Source: a virus
Taxonomy: Duplodnaviria; Caudoviricetes
DNA: 55,653 nt
Virus record (IMG/VR): IMGVR_UViG_3300011114_000465
Span: 1 to 55,653 of that record
Strand: one strand, 5' to 3'
The notes under the pieces are model-generated. The model worked only from the letters and a program-made list of their open reading frames with translations. It ran no database searches and had not been told where the DNA came from. The translations under genes and the position numbers were made by a program. Shown piece after piece: positions 1,092 through 38,327 of the stretch (position 1 is the first letter of the stretch; every line of letters begins with the position of its first letter).

Positions 1092-3580
1092 TGTTCTCAT
1101 CCAAGAATCAATTCCTAACAGGCGCTGGCGGCTACCAAATTCAGCGCAGTGTGCGTCTGCGCTCAAGTGCAAGCGGGTATTTCAATAGAACGCCTGGGAG
1201 TGCATCAAGCCGGACTACTTGGACGTGGAGTGGCTGGGTAAAACGTGGAGAGTTGTCAAGGTCAACTGTTGGTGGAGTAATAGGAATATTTGGCGCTGGA
1301 ACACTTGGGACGAGCCAATCAAATTTCAATTGCTACTTCAACAGCAACTTTGATATTTATTTGCAAGAAACGGTAAATAACGTATCAAATCAATTGATAT
1401 ATGAAACTACCTCTCTCTACCGTGACCCATCGGCTTGGTATCACATCATCATTGCGATGGATACAACGCAAGCCACTGCGTCAAATAGAACAAGAATATA
1501 TGTTAACGGCGTACTTGCACCCGGCTCGTTCTCCGTAACACCCGGACAAAACCAAACATTGTCTATCAACAATACCGTGCCTCAGTACATCGGTGGGGCG
1601 GGTGTCAATCCTCAAGCCTATGGCAACGTGCTTAGTTACCTTGATGGCTACCTCACTGAGATCAATTTTGTTGACGGCTACCCAACAGTATCAGGAACAA
1701 CCTATAACGCCACCACATGGGCGGCATTGAATGTTGCAACACTGTTTGGTGAAACAAACCCTGTCACTGGTGTATGGCAACCGAAAGCGTATATAGGCAC
1801 ATACGGCACAAACGGATATGAACTGAACTTTAGCGACAACTCCGCCTCTACTGCCGCAACCATTGGCAAAGACTACTCAGGCAACGGCAACAACTGGACA
1901 CCAAACAACATCAGCGTGACTGCTGGTGTTACATACGACTCCATGCTGGACACACCTACACCTTTTGCTGATGGCGGTAATGGCCGGGGGAACTACCCAG
2001 TCCTTAACCCAATCAAATTATTTGCCAATAATTTAACCATCACTGATGGCAATCTATCGGCGACGAATTCGTCGGCAACTGTCGCCACTCAAGCAGTTGC
2101 GTCCATGCGACTGCCGTCAACCGGCAAATGGTATTGGGAAGTCACAAACGTATCGGGCTCTGGATTGAACTGCTATGCTGGCATGGCTACTACTGAGGCG
2201 GTCGCCGATGGAAGCACGGTCACCAACAATATTGGCGGCTATCGATCAAATGGCGCAATAAATAATCTAGCTGGAACCGCGCAGACATCAGGCGCTACGT
2301 ATACAGCGGGTGACGTGATTGGCGTAGCAGTAGACGTTGATGCTGGCACTGTGCAGTTTTACAAAAACGGTGCAGCGCAAGGAGCAACCCCATCATTCAG
2401 TTTTACAGCCGGGACAATCATCGTTCCTGCGGTTGCCACTGACAACTCAGCAGGCACAAAAACCTTTGCAGCCAACTTTGGTCAACGCCCATTCAACAGC
2501 ACACCGCCCACTGGCTTTATTGCACTGAACACGCAGAACCTGCCTACGCCCAGTATCAGCAATGGCGCAAGCTACATGGCGGCTACTACATATACAGGTA
2601 CTGGGGCTTCTTTGGCTGTTACAAATACAGTCAATGGCATATCGTTTCAACCTGATTTTGTATGGACAAAAGTTCGCAACAACACTTACTCAAATCATCT
2701 TGAAGACGCTGTGCGCGGAGTCGGCCAGCGTTTGTTAAGTGATAGTACAGTAGTAGAAGCAACCGGTACAAATGGCAAACTGACAGCATTTAATTCAAAT
2801 GGATTTACGCAAGATGGCGGCGTAGAAGTTGGCGCATCTGCTGGTACTTACGTTGCTTGGCAATGGAACGCTGGCGGCTCAACTGTAACCAACACCAGCG
2901 GAACAATTTCAGCACAAGTAAGAGCAAATGCAACTGCTGGCTTTAGCGTGGTGACGTATACAGGCACAGGTGCTAACGCTACTGTTGGTCATGGCTTGGG
3001 TGTTGCGCCTAAGATGATAATACTTAAACCTAGAAGTATTGTTAGTTCATGGATTGTTTGGCACACCGCATTCGCTGGCACTGAATACATTGTCTTGGAA
3101 TCAACTGCCGCAAAAGCAACTTTGGCGGCTATGTGGAACAGCACAACTCCAACCAGCAGTGTTTTCAGCATTGGAACAAATGCCAACGTCAGTCAAAATG
3201 CAGCAACTTTTGTAGCCTACTGCTTTGCCGCAGTAGCTGGATACTCTGCATTTGGTAGCTACACAGGCAATGCAAGCACTGATGGGCCTTTTGTGTACAC
3301 AGGATTTAGACCGAGGTTTGTAATGTGGAAAAACGCATCCGCAGTAGGAGATTGGCAAATTTTTGATACATCTCGCAATCTATACAACTTAACAAACCTT
3401 GACCTTCGCCCCAATCTTTCGCAAGCCGAAACCACTCAAGCGACCACTAACCAGCCCTTAGATTTTTTATCAAACGGTTTTAAGATTAGAGGCAGTGGAG
3501 CAGGCGGCAACGGAAGCGGCAACACCATAATCTACGCCGCATTTGCCGAAAACCCATTCAAAAATTCACTTGCGAGGTAA
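1091..3580 (+). CDS. Tail/receptor-binding protein with LamG (ConA-like) and SPRY domains
   Basis: TWTWSGWVKR, DPSAWYHII, GKWYWEV, GDVIGVAVD motifs; follows tail fibre. Confidence 0.8.
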   Translation: MFSSKNQFLTGAGGYQIQRSVRLRSSASGYFNRTPGSASSRTTWTWSGWVKRGELSRSTVGGVIGIFGAGTLGTSQSNFNCYFNSNFDIYLQETVNNVSNQLIYETTSLYRDPSAWYHIIIAMDTTQATASNRTRIYVNGVLAPGSFSVTPGQNQTLSINNTVPQYIGGAGVNPQAYGNVLSYLDGYLTEINFVDGYPTVSGTTYNATTWAALNVATLFGETNPVTGVWQPKAYIGTYGTNGYELNFSDNSASTAATIGKDYSGNGNNWTPNNISVTAGVTYDSMLDTPTPFADGGNGRGNYPVLNPIKLFANNLTITDGNLSATNSSATVATQAVASMRLPSTGKWYWEVTNVSGSGLNCYAGMATTEAVADGSTVTNNIGGYRSNGAINNLAGTAQTSGATYTAGDVIGVAVDVDAGTVQFYKNGAAQGATPSFSFTAGTIIVPAVATDNSAGTKTFAANFGQRPFNSTPPTGFIALNTQNLPTPSISNGASYMAATTYTGTGASLAVTNTVNGISFQPDFVWTKVRNNTYSNHLEDAVRGVGQRLLSDSTVVEATGTNGKLTAFNSNGFTQDGGVEVGASAGTYVAWQWNAGGSTVTNTSGTISAQVRANATAGFSVVTYTGTGANATVGHGLGVAPKMIILKPRSIVSSWIVWHTAFAGTEYIVLESTAAKATLAAMWNSTTPTSSVFSIGTNANVSQNAATFVAYCFAAVAGYSAFGSYTGNASTDGPFVYTGFRPRFVMWKNASAVGDWQIFDTSRNLYNLTNLDLRPNLSQAETTQATTNQPLDFLSNGFKIRGSGAGGNGSGNTIIYAAFAENPFKNSLAR

Positions 3581-16534: not shown

Positions 16535-19500
16535 ATGGCTAATTGCACGTATCGGTTCACCGACGCGGACGGCAAAGAGCAAGTCATCGAAGGCCAAGCC
16601 GCGTTCAAAGCGTACCTGGCCAGCGGTGGCCTGGAACACTTGCTTCCATCCAGAGCTGTAGAAAAAGCTGATGAAGGCAGCCCCTTCACGGTTGCTTTTA
16701 GCAATAAGCAGACACCGGTTTCCGAATGGCCGGAAACTGAAAAACACATAGGCCGAGTTACAAGCTACGAAGCAAAGCCGGGTGAGTTCATTACCGTGTT
16801 ACGCCTGGCCAATATGGAAGGACTAGATAACGCCAACGCGGCCAGCGTAGAAGGTTTGTATACCTACCTGTCAATGGTTGATGATAGAGAATCCGCAGCT
16901 GGCGGAGAAGCTAAAGACTCTGACACCATCTATGCTTACAAGGTTCAAGTTCCTGAAAAAGGATTTAAGGAGTACGCCGCAAACCGTGGCGGAAAAGCAA
17001 TCGGTTTGCAAGATGAGGTTACCGGTGCAGGGCGCATGCCTGCAAAATGGGGCGGCTTCTGGTATTCATTTCCAGTAGGAACAAAGGCCGAGCTGTTAGG
17101 TTCAATACCCCTGGCCACCGCGCGGTCCACGTTAAAGGAAATGGCGGACTCTGATAATTTCGATTACGCGGGATCAGAGCTTGGGGCCAAGGCTTTGTAT
17201 GCCGCATTTAACACGGAAAGCAGCCCGCTGTTTAGCCGGTCTCAAAACGTGCCCGAGCTGGAGCCGGAAGACGTACTCAAGCCAAGCACGATTGCAGCCG
17301 CTGAGGCAGCCATCAAGCGTTACAAAAAGGCCGAGGCACCCGATACCCTTACCGCCAAACAACGGGCCGATGGTGAGGCTTTGCTCAAGCCCATGTTCGA
17401 TGGGGCCACACGCAATAAGGCAGACTTCGACAAGACCCTGGACCAGATTGCCGAAGGCTTGGGTGGCTACGCCAAGAAGCCGGGCATCAAAGGTTTGACC
17501 AGGGCCGTGACCAAGTTGATCACCGAGAACGGCAACGATCCAACCACGATGAAGGATTTGCTGCGCGGCACGATCGTGGTCAATACCTTCCAGGAAGCCC
17601 AGGAAGCGATCAATCAGATCGGCAAGGCGTATACCTTCGATCGGATTAAAAACCGCTTGGCTGTCGATCTGACAAGCCCTGACGGTACTGTGCTCAAGGG
17701 TGTTCCTTTGTCAACCGGATACCAAGACATCCTGACAAACGTGACCCTGGAAGATGGCACGGTTGCAGAGATTCAGATCAGCACGCCCGAGATGTTGGCT
17801 GCCAAGCATTTAGGCCATGAGGTTTATGCGTTTACAAGGGAGATGCCAGAAAGCCCTATTAAGGCCAAGATGGTTGACCTTCAAAAGCAGATTTACTCTG
17901 AGGGGTACGACGCTTATTTGGCGCGTGAAGCAAAGGCTTTAAAGACCCGTTCAAATTCAGCCTTGTCGACTGGGTCTCCTTTTTCCCGCACGTCCGAAGG
18001 GTTGCGCGGCTCAGGTGCTGGCAACCAGGCGGTGGCAGAACGCCAGCCAGGTGCGACTGTCACTGGCACCTCGTTCCAGTCAAAGAACATGGTGCCTGGT
18101 GGTAAGGATTTGAAGTCGAAGTCCATGTCACCAAGTATACCTGAAAGCATTGGTATCAACGTAAACCAGGACGGAAACAATAAATACGCCGACAAAATCG
18201 TTGACGGCGAGAAGACCTTAGAGACCCGCGCGTCTGATTCGTTGCGCCCATACGTCGGCAAACGGGTAGCCATTGTCCGTACTGGCGAAGGCCCGGCCAA
18301 GGCAATTGGCGCAGTGACGATTGGTGAGCCTATCAAGGTCACCACACAAAAACAGTTTGATCAATACCGCAATCAAACCCTGGTGCCCAAAGATTCCAAG
18401 TTCGACATCGCTCCAGGTGGTGTGAAGTATTTGTACCCCCTGGAAAACCCTGTTCGCTATGAGACTGAGCGCGATGTTGGCCAAGGCATCGTGGCTCGTA
18501 AGGTCATCGTGCCGGTAACCCGGGCTGCGCAAAAGAACGCAGCAGCCAGTCGCGTGGACAACGTATCAGCTGATCGATTCAAACGAACCGAACAACTCCA
18601 GCAAGCCGTCGCCGATCTGCAAGATGGCAAGATTACACGCACCGAGTACAACCGCATGGTCGACCAGGTGCGCCCGGTCTACCCATACAAAGAAGTACCC
18701 GCAGTCACGGCGGTCAAAGACGCTCGATACGCCCTGGCCACAGGCAAAGGCCAAAGCCCAGAGAAGGCAGCCAAGTACGGCCTGCCTGCCATGACATTCA
18801 AGCAAGGCGATTGGGCACAGTTGCGTTTGGACATTCCGTCATATCAGCTGCATGACACCTGGGTGGTCAGCGTACACACGCCCAAGTCAACCAACCGCGA
18901 AGTCCAAGCTGCATACGACGCTGGTCCAGTGGTCGGCTATGAGTCCGTGGCCGCGTTGAAAGACGTGACCTTTGGCATGAACCAAAAGGCCGCAGCCAAG
19001 ATAGCTACAGGCACCGCCAAGGGCACGATCGCTACCATGCTTGGCAAGTGGTCACCCATCAGCAGGGCCGACGCTAAGGCCCGCGCTGATGCGGCCCTCA
19101 ATGACCCAGCCTGGGTACAGGTTGGCATGGACCCATTCCGCCACAGCTACTTCTACAACCGCGACACCATGCAGCCGATCGTTCGCGCTGATGAGGTGAT
19201 CCAGATCGGCCCCTTGGTCTTGGCCAAGAACCCAGGATACAGCGAGGACGTTGACATCACTGGTGCCCCTTTCGCGTTTAGCAAGCGTGAAGAGATTGTC
19301 CAGATCGCGGACGACGCTGCACGCCAGGCCGTGTTCCTCCAGCAAAAGGCCGAAGAGGCTGGCTACAAAACAGTCGATGATTTTGTTGACAACGACTACA
19401 ACAAATTTGTTGAAGCAGCTAAGCAATGGCGTGAAGAGAACCCGGCTGAGATGATGTTCCAGAAACGTCAGACCAACCCGCCGGAATTAAAACGCTGGTT

Positions 19501-22500
19501 CAGAGACAGCAAAGCGGTTGATGCTAACGGCGAGCCGATGGTTCTTTACCGAGGCGAACATGGCGAAAGCGGGGACATGGATTTCCAATCACGCGTTGCG
19601 TCGCTATCGTTCGGCACCAAAGAGCTGGCCAATTTGTATGCTGAAAAACCAAATAGGTTTGGCGATCGGACCGTCAACCCTCGCGTCATTCCTGTGTATG
19701 TGCGTATTGAAAATCCTTTGATCAATACCCCGAATGACCCGTTCATTGAGTTGGGCGATGTGATCGATAAACTGGGTATGGATGTGGCCAAGTCAGCCGC
19801 ACACAAACTGTATGACGACATCTATAACTCAGGCCCTTGGTTTAGCACGTACTCAGAAAAGTATGAAGGCATTGACGCGCTGATTAAAAAAGACCCCGAG
19901 GCTTTGCGCAATTTGTATGTGTTGGCCTGGAAGTTTTTTGATGATTTTGAATTTGTAAATGCGGCCAAGAAGGCGGGATACGATGGCGCTATTCATGCGG
20001 AATACGGCGCTCATTCTGAAAACGAACAAGGCGCAGAGTACAAAGTGTTTGACCAATCCCAGGTCAAGTCAGCCATCGGCAACAACGGCGAGTTTGATGA
20101 GAACAACCCAGACATCCGCTTTGCACGCAAGCCCCTGGGCCGTGAGACTGAGGGTTGGATATTCAGCCGCGATGAGTTGGGTCGCTTCCGCTTCGGCGCT
20201 GGCGCAAAGGCTTATCGATATGCAGCAGACGTGGCCAACATCGTTCTTGGCAAGATTAACTTGAAGCCAGTCAGCCCTGAGCTGTCACGCGCCCTGCGCA
20301 AGATGCGCGTTGAAATAGATAAGGCTCAAAACTTGACGGTCGATGTGGCCAAGAATCTCAAAGACTTGCCCAAGCAAGAACGCGACATGATCAGCGATGT
20401 GATTGAAGGCGAACTCAAAGCTGGTATTCGCCCACCAAAACGCGTGCTTGAATTAGCTGCGTCTATGCAGTCGATCATGTCTGAACAGACAGCAGAGCTG
20501 GTGCGCCTGGGCATGCTTTCGCCCCAGGCCGCTGGCCGCTGGGATGGCAAGTACCTGCCACGCTTCTACGAACAAAAGCTCGGCGACGAAACCAAGGCAT
20601 GGATGAAAGCGGTCAAGAATTTGCTGGCCCGCAAGACAACCATGCAAGGTATTCGCGGCAGCAGTCTGAAAGCACGGGGCATGTTCCAAAACGTACCAGT
20701 GGCTGAGCTTGATGACTGGACCAACGAAGGCTGGCAAGTTCGAGATGACAACTTTGATCCAGCGGTCGATGACACCATTACGATCTGGCGCGATTACACG
20801 CGCGATGAACGCGACGACATGGGTGAGATTCGTGATGCCATGTTCCGCTTTGTCATGGGCTACAACAAGAGCCAGCGCGACATTGCTCTTGGTCGTTTGT
20901 ATGAAAACCTAGCCGCCAACTACGGCAAAAAACGTGAAGAGCCTGGCTACGTACAAGTACCTGCGACCAAAGTCGAAGACACCATGGTCCCCCGATACGG
21001 CAAGCTCGCGGGCAAATGGGTGCCAAAAGAAATTCTTCATCAACTCGAAGGCTTTGATCAATCGATGCAAAACGATTTGATCAAGATATACCTCAAGGGT
21101 TTGTCGATGTGGAAAGAAGGCAAGACTGTTCTCAACCCAGTCGCTCACGCAAACAACGTGCTGTCGAACTTGACGATGGCCCACTTTGCTGGCGTGTCTT
21201 ACTGGGATACACACAAGTACGTTGGCGCAATTGCCGACCTGGTCAAAGGTAAGGCCATGGTTGACGAAGCAAGGGAAGCCGGTTTATTTGGTGCCACGTT
21301 TGATCGCGCCGAGCTGATGAAAGTCATGCCTGAAGAACTCAAAGCCATGGCGCAAATGACCGAGTCAGCCGTTGCTCGCAACGTCGACCGTCTGTGGAAC
21401 GCGCTGTCTTTGTTCTTGCGCAAACCAATGGGCGCAGCATACGGTGCTGAAGACGAATTCTTCCGGTACATGATTTATCGCGATGCACGCAATCGCGGTT
21501 TAGGCGTGGATGATTCAGTTGACTATGCGCAAAAGTACATCTTCACATACGACGATTTGCCAAAGACCGCACGCATCATTCGCGACATGCCTCTTGGTTT
21601 GCCTTTCTTCAGCTACACGTTCAAGGCCATTCCGGCTTTGGCCAACACCGCTTTGGAACACCCGTTCCGTTATGCCGCGCCAGCGGTTGCCTTGTACACC
21701 GCAAACGCAATGATGTATGCAATGGCTGCAAGCCTGGGCGGTGGTGATGACGAAGACTGGTGGACCGTGATTCGTCGTTACATGACAGACGAAGAGTTCC
21801 GCAACAAGGCCAAGGCCATGGAGAAGCAAGAGCGTCAGTTCTTGCCGGATTGGATGAAGGGCGCAAGCCTGTCATTGGGCACTGAAAAAACCATACGCTT
21901 AGGCATGGACGACGTGACGAACTTACCGGTCTTCCTGGACGTAAGTCGCATTTTCCCGGGCGGTGATTTGTTTGATGCTCACAACAATGCGGGTGGCGTT
22001 CCCATGCTGGCACCGTTGACACCGAACAACCCAATCTTGACTTCTATTGTTGCGCTTAGTTACAACAAAGACACATTCCGAAATAAAGAGATTACCCTTA
22101 AAACCGACACCGACGCAGAGGCCGCGCAAAAACGTGCGGCCTGGGCTTGGAAACAGGTTACACCTGCAATCTCTTTGGGCAACACATTGTTTGAACGTGC
22201 AATGAATGTGATCGCCAACAGCACCGGCGAACCAGTTGACGTGGGCCTGGCCGAGTACACCGGCATCGGCGCAGATGGTTTGCCCATCCAACCTAAATAC
22301 GCAGCGATGCAAACCGTGGGTATTAAGGCGCGACCTATTGACCTTGATACATCAGAGAAGATTCAAGAGTCGCAAACCAAGGCGATGATACGAGACTTGG
22401 ATACTCAGATGCGCAAGCTCAAGCGTTTGGAAGGCAAAGGCGCAATCACCCCCGAAACATCCGAGCGTGAACGTGAGAAATTGCGTCAGAAGAAACAGTT

Positions 22501-22543
22501 TCTAAAAGAGGGGCTGACTGTTGAGGGGGAGGAGAAAGACTAA
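16535..22543 (+). CDS. Giant polyvalent virion protein 2: RelA/SpoT-like synthetase, ASCH, unknown domains, ART-like domain, large helical C-terminus
   Basis: IKGLTRAVTK..DLLRGTI..GYQD..EIQI..HEVY; IVDGEKTLETR; GEPMVLYRG..GYDG..QVKSAIGNNGEFD. Confidence 0.8.
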   Translation: MANCTYRFTDADGKEQVIEGQAAFKAYLASGGLEHLLPSRAVEKADEGSPFTVAFSNKQTPVSEWPETEKHIGRVTSYEAKPGEFITVLRLANMEGLDNANAASVEGLYTYLSMVDDRESAAGGEAKDSDTIYAYKVQVPEKGFKEYAANRGGKAIGLQDEVTGAGRMPAKWGGFWYSFPVGTKAELLGSIPLATARSTLKEMADSDNFDYAGSELGAKALYAAFNTESSPLFSRSQNVPELEPEDVLKPSTIAAAEAAIKRYKKAEAPDTLTAKQRADGEALLKPMFDGATRNKADFDKTLDQIAEGLGGYAKKPGIKGLTRAVTKLITENGNDPTTMKDLLRGTIVVNTFQEAQEAINQIGKAYTFDRIKNRLAVDLTSPDGTVLKGVPLSTGYQDILTNVTLEDGTVAEIQISTPEMLAAKHLGHEVYAFTREMPESPIKAKMVDLQKQIYSEGYDAYLAREAKALKTRSNSALSTGSPFSRTSEGLRGSGAGNQAVAERQPGATVTGTSFQSKNMVPGGKDLKSKSMSPSIPESIGINVNQDGNNKYADKIVDGEKTLETRASDSLRPYVGKRVAIVRTGEGPAKAIGAVTIGEPIKVTTQKQFDQYRNQTLVPKDSKFDIAPGGVKYLYPLENPVRYETERDVGQGIVARKVIVPVTRAAQKNAAASRVDNVSADRFKRTEQLQQAVADLQDGKITRTEYNRMVDQVRPVYPYKEVPAVTAVKDARYALATGKGQSPEKAAKYGLPAMTFKQGDWAQLRLDIPSYQLHDTWVVSVHTPKSTNREVQAAYDAGPVVGYESVAALKDVTFGMNQKAAAKIATGTAKGTIATMLGKWSPISRADAKARADAALNDPAWVQVGMDPFRHSYFYNRDTMQPIVRADEVIQIGPLVLAKNPGYSEDVDITGAPFAFSKREEIVQIADDAARQAVFLQQKAEEAGYKTVDDFVDNDYNKFVEAAKQWREENPAEMMFQKRQTNPPELKRWFRDSKAVDANGEPMVLYRGEHGESGDMDFQSRVASLSFGTKELANLYAEKPNRFGDRTVNPRVIPVYVRIENPLINTPNDPFIELGDVIDKLGMDVAKSAAHKLYDDIYNSGPWFSTYSEKYEGIDALIKKDPEALRNLYVLAWKFFDDFEFVNAAKKAGYDGAIHAEYGAHSENEQGAEYKVFDQSQVKSAIGNNGEFDENNPDIRFARKPLGRETEGWIFSRDELGRFRFGAGAKAYRYAADVANIVLGKINLKPVSPELSRALRKMRVEIDKAQNLTVDVAKNLKDLPKQERDMISDVIEGELKAGIRPPKRVLELAASMQSIMSEQTAELVRLGMLSPQAAGRWDGKYLPRFYEQKLGDETKAWMKAVKNLLARKTTMQGIRGSSLKARGMFQNVPVAELDDWTNEGWQVRDDNFDPAVDDTITIWRDYTRDERDDMGEIRDAMFRFVMGYNKSQRDIALGRLYENLAANYGKKREEPGYVQVPATKVEDTMVPRYGKLAGKWVPKEILHQLEGFDQSMQNDLIKIYLKGLSMWKEGKTVLNPVAHANNVLSNLTMAHFAGVSYWDTHKYVGAIADLVKGKAMVDEAREAGLFGATFDRAELMKVMPEELKAMAQMTESAVARNVDRLWNALSLFLRKPMGAAYGAEDEFFRYMIYRDARNRGLGVDDSVDYAQKYIFTYDDLPKTARIIRDMPLGLPFFSYTFKAIPALANTALEHPFRYAAPAVALYTANAMMYAMAASLGGGDDEDWWTVIRRYMTDEEFRNKAKAMEKQERQFLPDWMKGASLSLGTEKTIRLGMDDVTNLPVFLDVSRIFPGGDLFDAHNNAGGVPMLAPLTPNNPILTSIVALSYNKDTFRNKEITLKTDTDAEAAQKRAAWAWKQVTPAISLGNTLFERAMNVIANSTGEPVDVGLAEYTGIGADGLPIQPKYAAMQTVGIKARPIDLDTSEKIQESQTKAMIRDLDTQMRKLKRLEGKGAITPETSEREREKLRQKKQFLKEGLTVEGEEKD
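17914..18126 (-). CDS. Putative antisense nested gene (70 aa), candidate antitoxin of RelA/SpoT-like domain
   Basis: TATACT 7 nt before ATG (leaderless layout); globular-looking aromatic-rich product opposite a low-complexity linker. Confidence 0.65.
   Translation of the reverse strand: MDFDFKSLPPGTMFFDWNEVPVTVAPGWRSATAWLPAPEPRNPSDVREKGDPVDKAEFERVFKAFASRAK
18134..18139 (-). promoter_or_regulatory. -10 box for leaderless antisense transcript
   Basis: TATACT on minus strand; no correctly spaced -35 found. Confidence 0.5.
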
Positions 22544-22745
22544 GGCGCATGTCGTCCAGTCTTTCCACCAATCGATTGATTCGTTTCTGGTTGTACTCAA
22601 CCATGGCCACGTAATATTCAACCGATGTCTCTGCATCCATCTTGGCCAGCTGAGCTTCAAGCAGTTCATGTTCAGCAATTTCAATCGGTGTTTTGGACCG
22701 AAAGAAGTCGCGCACAAATTGAAGAATCAGTTCACGCTTGGTCAT
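22446..22745 (-). CDS. Hypothetical protein
   Basis: ATGA-coupled to upstream ORF; overlaps 3' end of polyvalent gene convergently. Confidence 0.6.
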   Translation of the reverse strand: MTKRELILQFVRDFFRSKTPIEIAEHELLEAQLAKMDAETSVEYYVAMVEYNQKRINRLVERLDDMRLSLSPPPQQSAPLLETVSSDAISHVHARMFRG

Positions 22746-22981
22746 GGTTTGTCCTTCACCCATAGGCAGTCAAAACAAATTTTCATCATCCAACGCACAA
22801 ACCAATTTGGCTCCTTGCCTTTGGTTGGTCGATAAATAATTCCTACGCCACCGGGTCGATTGCCAAACAAATAGCATTGCCATTCAGACTGTTGTGGTGT
22901 TGGTTGAAATTTGTAGTCTTTTTTTACGATGAACTTGGCGTATTCCTCATCAAATGCTTTGTTGATTTCATAGTTGTTCAT
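22742..22981 (-). CDS. Hypothetical protein
   Basis: Coupled ORF in leftward operon. Confidence 0.65.
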   Translation of the reverse strand: MNNYEINKAFDEEYAKFIVKKDYKFQPTPQQSEWQCYLFGNRPGGVGIIYRPTKGKEPNWFVRWMMKICFDCLWVKDKP

Positions 22982-23211
22982 TGCTTGAGGTCCCTGATAT
23001 AGACCGCGAAGCTGCTCATGGTGTCGTGGCCAAAGCCTTTGAGCTTCTCGACGTGTTGAGCTACTTCTTCGATCACGTTGTTGCGCAGCTCATCGTAAAA
23101 CTCTTGAGGAGTTTTGGATTCGATGACCTCGACGCGTTCTTTGACACCTTGCATGTCTTGCTCCAATCTTTGCACTTGATCTTCAATTTGTCTTTTGCGA
23201 TTTAGTGACAT
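22978..23211 (-). CDS. Hypothetical protein
   Basis: Probable start MSLNRKRQ; coupled stop/start. Confidence 0.6.
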   Translation of the reverse strand: MSLNRKRQIEDQVQRLEQDMQGVKERVEVIESKTPQEFYDELRNNVIEEVAQHVEKLKGFGHDTMSSFAVYIRDLKQ

Positions 23212-37137: not shown

Positions 37138-37379
37138 GTCGTCACCTCCGGGCATCTTTCAAACAAGGCGACCAGCTTAGGGTCATCGATCTGGGTCCAG
37201 CCGTCTGGCCGATACCAAACTCCGTCCAGCTCGTGTGCGACCTGGCGACCGTAGTCGATTGGCCATCGAGAGGATTCGAGGATGCCCTCGCGGGGCATGT
37301 GTTGTGGTTGCACCGAATACACGGCACGGTTGCCGCTGGGCAGCGTGACGAGCATGTTGGTGTTCGAGAGATTAGGCAT
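37134..37379 (-). CDS. Hypothetical protein
   Basis: Coupled ORF. Confidence 0.6.
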   Translation of the reverse strand: MPNLSNTNMLVTLPSGNRAVYSVQPQHMPREGILESSRWPIDYGRQVAHELDGVWYRPDGWTQIDDPKLVALFERCPEVTT

Positions 37380-37909
37380 TAGAGCTCCTTCATTTTGGCT
37401 ACGGTTTCAGTTAAAGCGGATGCCATGGGCGCACCCCTGGCAGCGATGATGCTGGCCAATTCGGTGTAGTACCACAAGACGTCTTCCTTGGGTGCCTTGA
37501 ATTTTGCAAACACTGTGGGACCGTCGGAGACGATCGCCCTGGCGTTGTGCAATTTGTCAGACCCGGCAATCAGAAGAGCGTCGTTGCTTGCCTTGGCTAA
37601 GTGAGCCAGGTACTCGATTCTTTTTTCTTTCCAAGTGCCTTTGCCGAGGTGGCTGACGGCCATCACCAGGTCAGCGACATAGGGGCCAAACTCTTCTCTG
37701 ATCGGGACGATGTACGCCCGACCAGCGTCTTCGACCACGTCGTGGAGAACGGCTGCAATGGCAACGTCCTCACTGCCACCGTACTCCATGGCCATGGCCG
37801 AGACAGCGAGCGGGTGAGATATGTAGGGCACGGTCGTGCCGGTTCTGAATACGCCGTAGTGGGCGGCAACGGCCATAGCCACGGCTTTGGCATAACGGGC
37901 TCTGCTCAT
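37379..37909 (-). CDS. HD-domain hydrolase, SpoT/Mesh1 (small alarmone hydrolase) type
   Basis: AH....R.....PYISHP, AAVLHDVVED, DKLHN. Confidence 0.88.
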   Translation of the reverse strand: MSRARYAKAVAMAVAAHYGVFRTGTTVPYISHPLAVSAMAMEYGGSEDVAIAAVLHDVVEDAGRAYIVPIREEFGPYVADLVMAVSHLGKGTWKEKRIEYLAHLAKASNDALLIAGSDKLHNARAIVSDGPTVFAKFKAPKEDVLWYYTELASIIAARGAPMASALTETVAKMKEL

Positions 37910-37995
37910 AGTGGTCTCCAGATAAAAATGTCCATCAACAAAGCGGCCATGGCCGCGATGTATACGAAGGTGAGTGCAATGGCTTCGCGGTTCAT
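37906..37995 (-). CDS. Small membrane peptide (29 aa)
   Basis: Read manually: MNREAIALTFVYIAAMAALLMDIFIWRPL; coupled both ends. Confidence 0.55.
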   Translation of the reverse strand: MNREAIALTFVYIAAMAALLMDIFIWRPL

Positions 37996-38327
37996 TCGAT
38001 CCCCTGTTCTTTGGCAGCAGCCAAAATGATTTCGTCCAACTTGGCTTCGATTGCATCAGCGGTTGACTTGCTGATCATGTCGTAGCGCCCGTAGTTCTGC
38101 TTGATTTCCCTTGATACGCCAGGGATGCGAAACACGGTGCTGAATTCACGGGCCATATTGCAAAGCCCGTTGTTGTACAAGTCGTAGTAGCAGTTCGATG
38201 CCTTACGAAACTTCTCAAGGTGCTTGTTGACAGTATTTCCTTTTGGCACGGGGCCAAAGAATGGCAACAAGTCTTTGAGGCTATCTGCCTTGGCCTGGTA
38301 TTGGCCTTTGCTTTCCCAATATGTCAT
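37992..38327 (-). CDS. Hypothetical protein
   Basis: AGGAGG RBS; YW...G.YQ..YYDLYNNG..N motif. Confidence 0.75.
   Translation of the reverse strand: MTYWESKGQYQAKADSLKDLLPFFGPVPKGNTVNKHLEKFRKASNCYYDLYNNGLCNMAREFSTVFRIPGVSREIKQNYGRYDMISKSTADAIEAKLDEIILAAAKEQGIE

Follow-up and report, generated by a model that had tools for sequence, protein, structure and literature searches.

A putative immunity gene on the opposite strand within the phage polyvalent gene that carries its predicted Tas1-like synthetase target

We have analyzed the complete virus record IMGVR_UViG_3300011114_000465 (Caudoviricetes), a stretch of 55,653 bp with direct terminal repeats that we call the window, and specifically one gene of its plus strand (16535-22543) that codes for a phage polyvalent protein of 2002 amino acids (aa). 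Wholly inside this host gene, the minus strand carries a small open reading frame (ORF) of 70 codons (coding sequence 17917-18126, stop codon TAA at 17914-17916; product MDFDFKSLPPGT...), for which we propose the role of an immunity or antitoxin protein. Its presumed target would be encoded immediately next to it on the other strand, in the form of a nucleotide pyrophosphokinase module similar to Tas1 and RelA/SpoT (17318-17920, plus strand, host residues 262-462), like those of the toxic small alarmone synthetases (toxSAS). That the minus-strand ORF is a genuine, functional protein-coding gene we hold with high confidence, and its product probably neutralizes the adjacent synthetase module. 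To the reading as a whole, an antisense immunity gene against a Tas1-like module within a polyvalent gene, we assign a probability of about 0.62, and it is the best explanation that we have for the data. A previous inspection of the letters and their ORFs only (the sequence-only reading) had named this ORF as the candidate antitoxin of the RelA/SpoT-like domain. The proposal has gained support from the selection acting on the frame, the kept start codon and -10 hexamer, the existence of sense-encoded homologues, the co-occurrence with the synthetase and a model of the complex.

Position and conservation of the antisense frame

The ORF is found where the sequence-only reading had placed it. On the plus strand, the letters cat at 18124-18126 correspond to the ATG and tta at 17914-17916 to the TAA, and the peptide given there is the translation of the ORF, which is in antisense frame 1 of the host gene. 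The ORF also fills, as had been described, the gap between the synthetase and the ASCH domains, covering host residues 461-531 between two weak Pfam matches at residues 319-427 and 549-595. Read in the host frame (17915-18139, plus strand, about residues 461-535), the mirror of the small gene is a linker of the polyvalent protein, and its composition is rich in S, G and T, in agreement with the earlier description. The antisense frame is longer when measured from stop to stop (148 codons), with a GTG at 18345 and an ATG at 18273 upstream.

A scan of viral contigs provided 21 related loci, 14 of which span the whole region with 71-82% nucleotide identity across the gene. Later scans added L029, from a Burkholderiales metagenome-assembled genome (MAG) bin, and four further contigs, giving a total of 20 distinct contigs that have the synthetase module, window included. 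A blastn search (distant mode) with 17300-18700 found no match in the phage GenBank collection. In all 20 contigs the antisense ORF is open from the same ATG, measures 70-77 aa and lies wholly inside the open frame of the opposite strand, with the position of the stop kept within 7 codons. Homologous linkers in which the antisense frame is closed, the observation that had been named as fatal to the proposal, were not seen (open in 14/14 loci of the first scan and in 20/20 overall). In a codon alignment of 15 sequences, the longest stretch in which no sequence has an antisense stop corresponds to host residues 462-544 (83 codons, followed by one of 63), and the only windows of 70 codons that are open in all 15 sequences (14 out of 1182) are all located within it. 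The antisense Trp codons are kept in 15/15, 15/15 and 14/15 sequences, opposite host residues that vary among N, T, V, S and P. The antisense ATG is kept in 15/15, opposite host residues that are S, F, V or A and then M or I, and the independent relatives P0020, P0021 and P0026 begin at the equivalent Met.

The openness of the frame in itself counts for little, and several numbers weigh against using it in favor of a gene. The host gene contains seven antisense ORFs of at least 70 aa starting with ATG, and shuffles of synonymous codons and of whole codons gave averages of 5.4 and 5.0; the bare ORF is no more than what is expected by chance. Given the host protein, the probability of finding the frame open is between 0.27 and 0.70 per sequence, openness being cheap in this stretch because just three Gln codons could create a stop. 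Changes that are synonymous for the host and yet introduce a stop into the small ORF do exist, at the third base of the host codon preceding each of these three, opposite antisense W17, W28 or W34. Another antisense ORF of the same gene (18940-19128) is open in 13 of 14 relatives. Besides, the family of small domains to which the product belongs (see below) contains few Tyr, His and Gln (19 of 870 residues; P0018, P0019 and P0022-23 enter solely this count), a composition that leaves the mirror frame naturally free of stops. For these reasons we rejected openness as evidence, being too weak. The same data, together with a feature search of the ESM Atlas that gave no usable match, are what can be said for a chance antisense ORF, i.e. 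an S/G/T-rich linker without Tyr or His codons that is conserved by way of the host protein.

Selection on the antisense frame

In the antisense frame of the small gene the third codon positions of both strands coincide (shared wobble). At sites that are four-fold degenerate in the host frame and two-fold degenerate in the antisense frame, a mixture of purines and pyrimidines (R/Y) is expected among relatives, unless the antisense protein is under selection. With the 15 sequences, none of the 13 columns of this class inside the ORF was R/Y-mixed, versus 108 of 220 in the rest of the gene (p 2.5e-4). Actually, 10 of these 13 columns do vary, by transitions alone. Columns that are four-fold degenerate in both frames were mixed in 14 of 20 cases inside the ORF (p 5e-5 against the 0/13 of the former class) and in 188 of 307 in the rest of the gene. 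The reverse test, with columns two-fold degenerate in the host frame and four-fold in the antisense frame, gave 4/10 mixed inside versus 32/320 elsewhere (p 0.016). The wobble constraint holds when all 20 sequences are used (0/10 versus 15/19). In a sliding scan of 928 windows of 70 codons, a mixed fraction of 0.1 or less was found solely in 80 windows, which overlap the ORF (starts at host residues 407-486). When five representatives were compared, 1 of 148 host-synonymous changes at third positions altered the antisense protein inside the ORF, versus 497 of 2995 outside (Fisher p 2e-10, calculated over pairs that are non-independent).

A profile of the synonymous rate in the host frame (synplot-like) showed no depression over the ORF (ratio 1.05, 63.5th percentile), a result that taken alone would speak against a second gene. 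However, a normal host-synonymous rate is what is expected here because the two frames share the wobble position; the rate test is insensitive in such a frame, and the degeneracy-class test was used instead. Judging from the pattern of substitutions, it is as a gene of the minus strand that the DNA evolves here, and the giant ORF does nothing but stay open. In other words, the host frame is relaxed over the ORF, and the antisense frame is under purifying selection beyond the constraint that the host protein imposes.

These results bear on three alternative explanations. The chance ORF set out above is hardly credible in our opinion: it does not account for variation restricted to transitions exactly at the antisense two-fold codons, a behavior without parallel in the gene, nor for antisense Trp and Met that stay invariant while the host residues opposite them vary, nor for the profile matches to sense-encoded proteins and the controlled complex model that are described below. 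A second possibility is a relic, a free-standing gene that was swallowed by the fusion of two plus-strand genes and is now silent linker DNA. The lack of a canonical promoter would fit this history, and so would the stop-poor mirror frame of the family, with which the giant ORF could have arisen by simple read-through. But a dead gene would lose the wobble constraint, and no mixed column was found with either set of sequences in lineages that have diverged by 18-29% at the nucleotide level; the ATG, the stop position, the -10 and (in 13/20 contigs) the Shine-Dalgarno sequence have been retained, and the frame that is relaxed is that of the host, not the antisense one. We consider a relic very unlikely. 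Finally, the conserved element might be not a protein but an antisense RNA, which would serve as an antitoxin similar to those of types I/III or would regulate the late mRNA of the polyvalent gene, given that the minus-strand -10 is conserved and that its transcript would fully complement the polyvalent mRNA. Nevertheless, the constraint is codon-periodic and follows the antisense degeneracy class, and there are homologues at the protein level with diverged DNA. A role as RNA could coexist with the protein and not replace it, and as a sole explanation it seems to us extremely improbable.

The synthetase module and its association with the small gene

The Pfam match to RelA_SpoT in the host gene (17489-17815, plus strand, residues 319-427) is weak, with an E value of 0.0077 and 16.9 bits, below the cut-off of 27 bits, and reaches 22.8 bits in L048. 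When a profile of residues 262-462 made from 13 sequences was compared with PDB, Tas1 was matched with E 3e-9 (6ox6_A), and RelA chains at just ~0.1. The motifs DLLRGT, GYQD, EIQI and H..Y are invariant in 13/13. Judging from these matches, the host module is a domain of the RelA/SpoT pyrophosphokinase superfamily with intact motifs, in which the GYQ loop, the H..Y motif and the catalytic Asp motif presumably have their usual roles.

The small gene is found in 20/20 contigs with the synthetase versus 0/7 relatives without it (L016-L022). In four of the latter (L018-L021) the N-terminal part of the polyvalent protein is joined straight to ASCH, and both the synthetase and the small gene are missing. 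L016 and L017 carry at the place of the synthetase another module that was not recognized, and L022 differs too. From this joint presence or absence it follows that synthetase and small gene are one cassette, which is kept across different neighboring modules.

By eye, the module of L016 and L017 was considered as a divergent RelA/SpoT domain; this was rejected, with no support from Pfam at E<=0.05 and no match to the synthetase profile. The linker that aligns with 17914-18139 in these two contigs is different and longer. Its antisense frame is open (~85 aa) and ends at the same place, does not match the profile of the small domain, and could be decayed, replaced or unrelated.

A model of the complex

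The complex of the synthetase segment and the small protein was modeled with an interface score (ipSAE) of 0.85 (0.84, 0.85 and 0.85 in the separate runs), versus 0.09 for the best control. The predicted local distance difference test (pLDDT) was at least 90 for the partner, and the agreement of contacts among runs at least 96%. Of the pairs used to set the mark for such models, 58 of 80 solved complexes and 2 of 110 mismatched pairs attain it, counts that hold roughly here, where our own alignments were used. In the model, the invariant stretch N42-V53 of the small protein contacts residues 129-135, 167-174 and 66-79 of the synthetase segment, which correspond to the strand and loop of GYQ, to H..Y and to a loop that precedes the presumed catalytic Asp motif. 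The model supports a binding of the small protein to the synthetase over its conserved motifs. It is possible that the prediction reproduces a structure already known, because Tas1-Tis1 is a solved complex; against this speaks that the small protein has no detectable likeness to Tis1. Specifically, the profile of the small protein compared with all PDB chains gave no Tis1 at E<=10 (one match with E 0.12 was spurious), and 6OX6 is absent among the 50 PDB matches listed by Foldseek.

A family of domains without annotation

A word-indexed protein search retrieved 15 close relatives of the small protein among metagenome gene calls, mostly of 77 aa and with the same Met. When 1.84 billion representatives were searched with a profile, 20 matches were obtained at E<=1e-3 (E down to 6e-19), among them stand-alone proteins of 67-91 aa and forms in which the domain, with its motifs, is duplicated in tandem; the window protein and P0032 have 34% identity, with an alignment that is convincing over the full length. 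Three of the profile matches (P0024, P0025, P0033) were set aside as repetitive or of low complexity by eye. With a second profile search the family reached 43 members at E<=1e-3; all of them lack a name or are labeled "hypothetical", and no Pfam domain is found in any. A scan of viral contigs with the P0020-type alignment gave 51 pattern matches, of which 0 were confirmed.

The domain has ~60 residues, with four strands and a C-terminal helix, and its signature is FFD[WV]..[VI]PV ... AW ... NPSDVR. In bacterial MAGs (mostly Burkholderiales) it appears as a small free-standing ORF. In 13 metagenome loci it makes up the C-terminal 60-odd residues of a protein of ~220 aa that is encoded in sense and co-directional with its neighbors. 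There, the frame of the domain is constrained (3/20 columns mixed) and its mirror frame is not (5/11), the same pattern as in the phage. The mirror peptide of the sense-encoded relatives resembles the phage "linker", and in these loci it is a short ORF under no selection. The similarity among these proteins indicates that the small gene belongs to a pre-existing family of domains that has no annotation. We do not find the embedded gene to be the younger partner, born by overprinting: it has sense-encoded homologues in bacteria and other elements, and the relaxed reading is that of the host.

The loci L030-L042 have a common order of genes: DUF3293, an unknown gene, a 138-aa paralogue of the N-domain, the 220-aa protein, a metallophosphoesterase and an AAA_5 ATPase. 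In L041 an integrase-like ORF is found close by (by eye), and the cluster may be an unrecognized conflict island.

Evidence against an inhibitor of the synthetase

A different function for a real and selected small gene is the alternative that we take most seriously, although we think it unlikely. The product could serve as a binding or adaptor domain of a general kind, such as a chaperone or packaging adaptor of the polyvalent protein, an early regulator or an anti-defence protein, and enzymatic detoxification would be left to a hydrolase of the phage. Several results point in this direction or weigh in other ways against the immunity function. In 22 bacterial and metagenome loci with sense-encoded relatives (L023-L028, L030-L045) no synthetase was found within up to 4 kb on each side, and their neighbors, which in 13 of them are the DUF3293, metallophosphoesterase and AAA_5 genes just mentioned, show no link to alarmone toxins. 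The family is therefore not tied to toxSAS in general. The NPSDVR motif, which forms the modeled interface, is conserved in these synthetase-free relatives too, and a small fraction of mismatched pairs attains the mark of the complex model. No Pfam family was found for the 70-aa and the 143-aa forms, nor in 9/10 distant relatives, P0017 giving sub-threshold noise only. The fold of the small protein when modeled alone is only moderately confident: AlphaFold2 with an alignment of 23 rows predicts the four strands and the C-terminal helix with a pLDDT of 73.8 and a predicted TM-score of 0.53 in the best model, the other four having pLDDT values of 51-59, and the model has no structural match at E<=1e-3 in PDB or BFVD. 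That the synthetase module is catalytic and toxic is itself suggested only by its likeness to Tas1.

The phage has, moreover, a candidate for the other antidote. On the minus strand (37379-38056) there is a gene for a 225-aa protein of the HD_4 family (61.7 bits, E 9e-17, over the cut-off), a hydrolase of the RelA/SpoT type similar to the small alarmone hydrolases. Counting the records with a completeness of 90% or more, the gene is found in 3/4 with the cassette and in 0/3 without it. This hydrolase could share the role of antidote or take it over.

On the other side, the co-occurrence with the synthetase is perfect among the phage contigs, and the modeled interface is located on the loops of the conserved catalytic motifs, not on a peripheral surface. 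One complete genome (G005) keeps the synthetase and the small gene without any HD_4 hydrolase, in line with the pattern published for such systems (PMC10083569), where a hydrolase occurs in some cases and a binding immunity protein in all.

Signals for expression

A -10-like hexamer, TATACT (18134-18139, minus strand), is located 7 nt upstream of the ATG, as the sequence-only reading had it, and may act as a promoter element. On the plus strand it corresponds to agtata, read as Ser-Ile in the host frame, and the gap to the ATG is tggtgac (18127-18133). Among the 20 contigs the hexamer is TATAAT in 12 and TATACT in 8. The host Ile codon inside the hexamer is ATA in 15/15 sequences, a codon that represents 5-10% of the Ile codons, and an invariant codon is found in just 2 of the 19 columns that are all Ile. 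The gene had been called leaderless, and this is true of part of the group: the geometry of the leaderless type, with a gap of 7 nt, is present in the window and altogether in 7/20 contigs, whereas 13/20 have a gap of 16 nt and a GGAGG located 5-6 nt before the ATG. The -10 and the GGAGG are kept across at least three different adjoining host modules: most contigs have ASCH at this place, L049, L051 and L053 lack it, L048 carries another module and L029 has a different flank. The small gene appears to own a -10, to which most relatives add a Shine-Dalgarno sequence, and with them it would be expressible apart from the late operon.

Other observations weigh against an expression of its own. The absence of a well-spaced -35 had been pointed out before and is borne out, since the hexamers TTGATA and TTTACG, 14 and 20 nt upstream, are non-canonical. 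A scan of 16000-23000 with the sigma-70 consensus gave 0 sites, missing TATACT because there is no -35. Just downstream of the ORF no intrinsic terminator was found on the minus strand, the nearest ones being at 18392-18378 and 17343-17331. None of the sequencing runs listed for the region is recorded as RNA; four of them gave Logan contigs, probably from DNA and with no information on strand or ends.

Considering all relatives, the -35 candidates were TTGATA/TTGAAA at 14 nt and TTGACG/TTTACG at 20 nt, all non-canonical, with TTGCTT at 17 nt in L048.

Proposed mechanism

We propose that the small protein would attach to the Tas1-like (p)ppApp/alarmone synthetase, whose coding sequence is located just upstream on the opposite strand, and would cover the region of the conserved GYQ loop and the H/Y motif. 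The toxin domain would thereby be kept silent in the cell that is producing phage; alternatively, the purpose might be to shut off the injected toxin after entry. The -10 of the small gene (plus the Shine-Dalgarno sequence in most relatives) would allow its expression apart from the late operon. Synthetase and small gene would move as one cassette, and the giant ORF crosses the small gene in the mirror frame, with shared wobble, and would use this reading as an open and flexible linker. A consideration that weighs against such a scheme is that the toxin of a lytic phage that is expressed late and carried in the virion has no obvious need of an antidote.

How the linker originated is a separate matter. 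It may have been annexed and not evolved, a version to which we give even odds: a convergent cassette of synthetase and immunity gene would have been inserted and the giant ORF would read through it, with promoters on opposite strands acting at different times and products that bind each other. This could be a general route for polyvalent and polymorphic toxins to gain toxin and immunity modules, and genes acquired in this way would be missed by standard gene calling.

Relation to known systems

Toxin-immunity pairs for phage-borne alarmone synthetases are already known, and so are antisense embedded genes. As described in part of PMC11782079, (pp)pApp-producing toxSAS are neutralized by small binding proteins of the Tis1 type that occlude the acceptor site. 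The case presented here resembles Tas1(Apk1)-Tis1 and the phage system MuF-Apk2-BcTis1-Aph1 in having a synthetase of the RelA/SpoT superfamily, with Tas1 as the nearest solved relative, on a protein of the phage virion type; in having a small, tightly linked gene whose product is modeled on the region of the active site; and in the variable presence of a gene for an HD-type alarmone hydrolase. It differs in that the small protein has no sequence similarity to Tis1, and we have not filed it as a member of that family. Besides, the small gene does not follow in an operon but is nested, on the other strand, in the ORF that bears the toxin, and the toxin, whose activity is predicted, is an internal module of a 2002-aa protein, not a C-terminal fusion to MuF or PAAR.

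Like the polyvalent proteins of phages and conjugative elements (Iyer, Burroughs, Anand, de Souza, Aravind 2017, PMC5512222), the product of the host gene is a giant protein with multiple effectors, ART-PolyVal among them. In the main text of that work, supplements aside, there is no embedded opposite-strand gene or antidote of a polyvalent module, and ASCH is unmentioned. As for embedded antisense genes, laoB of E. coli, the long overlapping genes of Pseudomonas and asp of HIV-1 are, in the portions of the reports cited here, also wholly nested, with coinciding third positions and purifying selection (PMC5810103, PMC8850804, PMC8781085, PMC7457138). These cases are described there as young overprinted genes, whereas here the embedded gene comes from a pre-existing family and it is the stretch of the large gene that appears overprinted and relaxed. 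They also differ from the present case, in which the two products are modeled to bind each other.

The situation has some similarity with toxins of bacteria. In the operons of pore-forming colicins, the immunity gene has the opposite orientation, with its own promoter of the constitutive type, and is convergent to the toxin gene. As in the window, the transcription of the antidote would be convergent to that of the toxin and immunity would be independent of toxin induction. Colicin immunity genes differ in being located between genes, with no overlap with the toxin ORF, and in encoding membrane proteins.

In the literature, supplements aside, we have not found the combination of an opposite-strand immunity gene inside a toxin ORF, a large gene acting as the overprinter and a new family of immunity domains. 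If the small protein is indeed the antidote, this would be the first case found of a protein antitoxin or immunity gene that is antisense within the ORF carrying the toxin. Toxin and antidote would then be on the two strands of the same DNA and recombination could not separate them. It would also be an exceptionally clean case of a functional gene embedded in antisense, having homologues, frame-specific selection and, in the remainder of the host gene, an internal control. With the large gene as the overprinter, the polarity is the reverse of the usual one, and the family is new, without annotation and would have a function that can be tested. The case bears as well on a question that is left open in the relevant part of PMC10083569, namely the role of virion-borne alarmone synthetases and the self-protection of the phage. 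The "linkers" of giant phage proteins seem worth a check of the other strand, for which the R/Y test at shared wobble positions offers a cheap screen.

The polyvalent gene and its surroundings

On the plus strand of the window are the genes for terminase, portal, major head protein, tail fibre and lysis, and on the minus strand those for a DNA polymerase and an exonuclease. The host gene is located behind the tail fibre and lysis genes, in a plus-strand block of fibre, lysis and giant proteins. The order of its modules is N-terminal part, synthetase, linker, ASCH-like, L5 gp82-like, ART-PolyVal and a long C-terminal part. The ART-PolyVal domain (19520-20095, plus strand) has a Pfam E of 5.6e-11, and the match to Phage_L5_gp82 is sub-threshold. 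The ASCH-like module after the linker (18179-18319, plus strand, residues 549-595) has a Pfam E of 0.013, below the cut-off, and the match rises to 21.9 bits in relatives; in L049, L051 and L053, which lack the module, the synthetase and the small gene are both kept. Several unrelated effector domains are thus found in one giant polypeptide encoded in the structural region of a phage, and the module content differs among relatives. The product fits the notion of a phage polyvalent protein put forward in PMC5512222, which in its main text includes RelA/SpoT among the domains of polyvalent proteins of the phage type.

The polyvalent gene is a mosaic, since three of its parts, namely the synthetase cassette, the ASCH module and an N-terminal insert, can each be there or missing when close relatives are compared (L016-L022, L048, L049, L051, L053). 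The junctions between modules in the host frame often have the form [LF]S[RK][RSTK] (LFSRSQ, PFSRTS, ALSRRE, AFSKRE; by eye), and might be processing sites. Directly upstream there is a second giant ORF (10766-16030, plus strand, 1754 aa) with no PHROG family at E<=1e-5. The two giant genes are separated by an ORF of 163 aa (16039-16530, plus strand) whose sole match is phrog_16594, of unknown function; a homologue of it adjoins the polyvalent gene in L029 too (1105-1611, minus strand). A second case of mirrored frames is located further upstream, where a 347-aa ORF (9570-10613, minus strand) mirrors nearly end to end a 395-aa ORF of the plus strand (9576-10763, no PHROG match).

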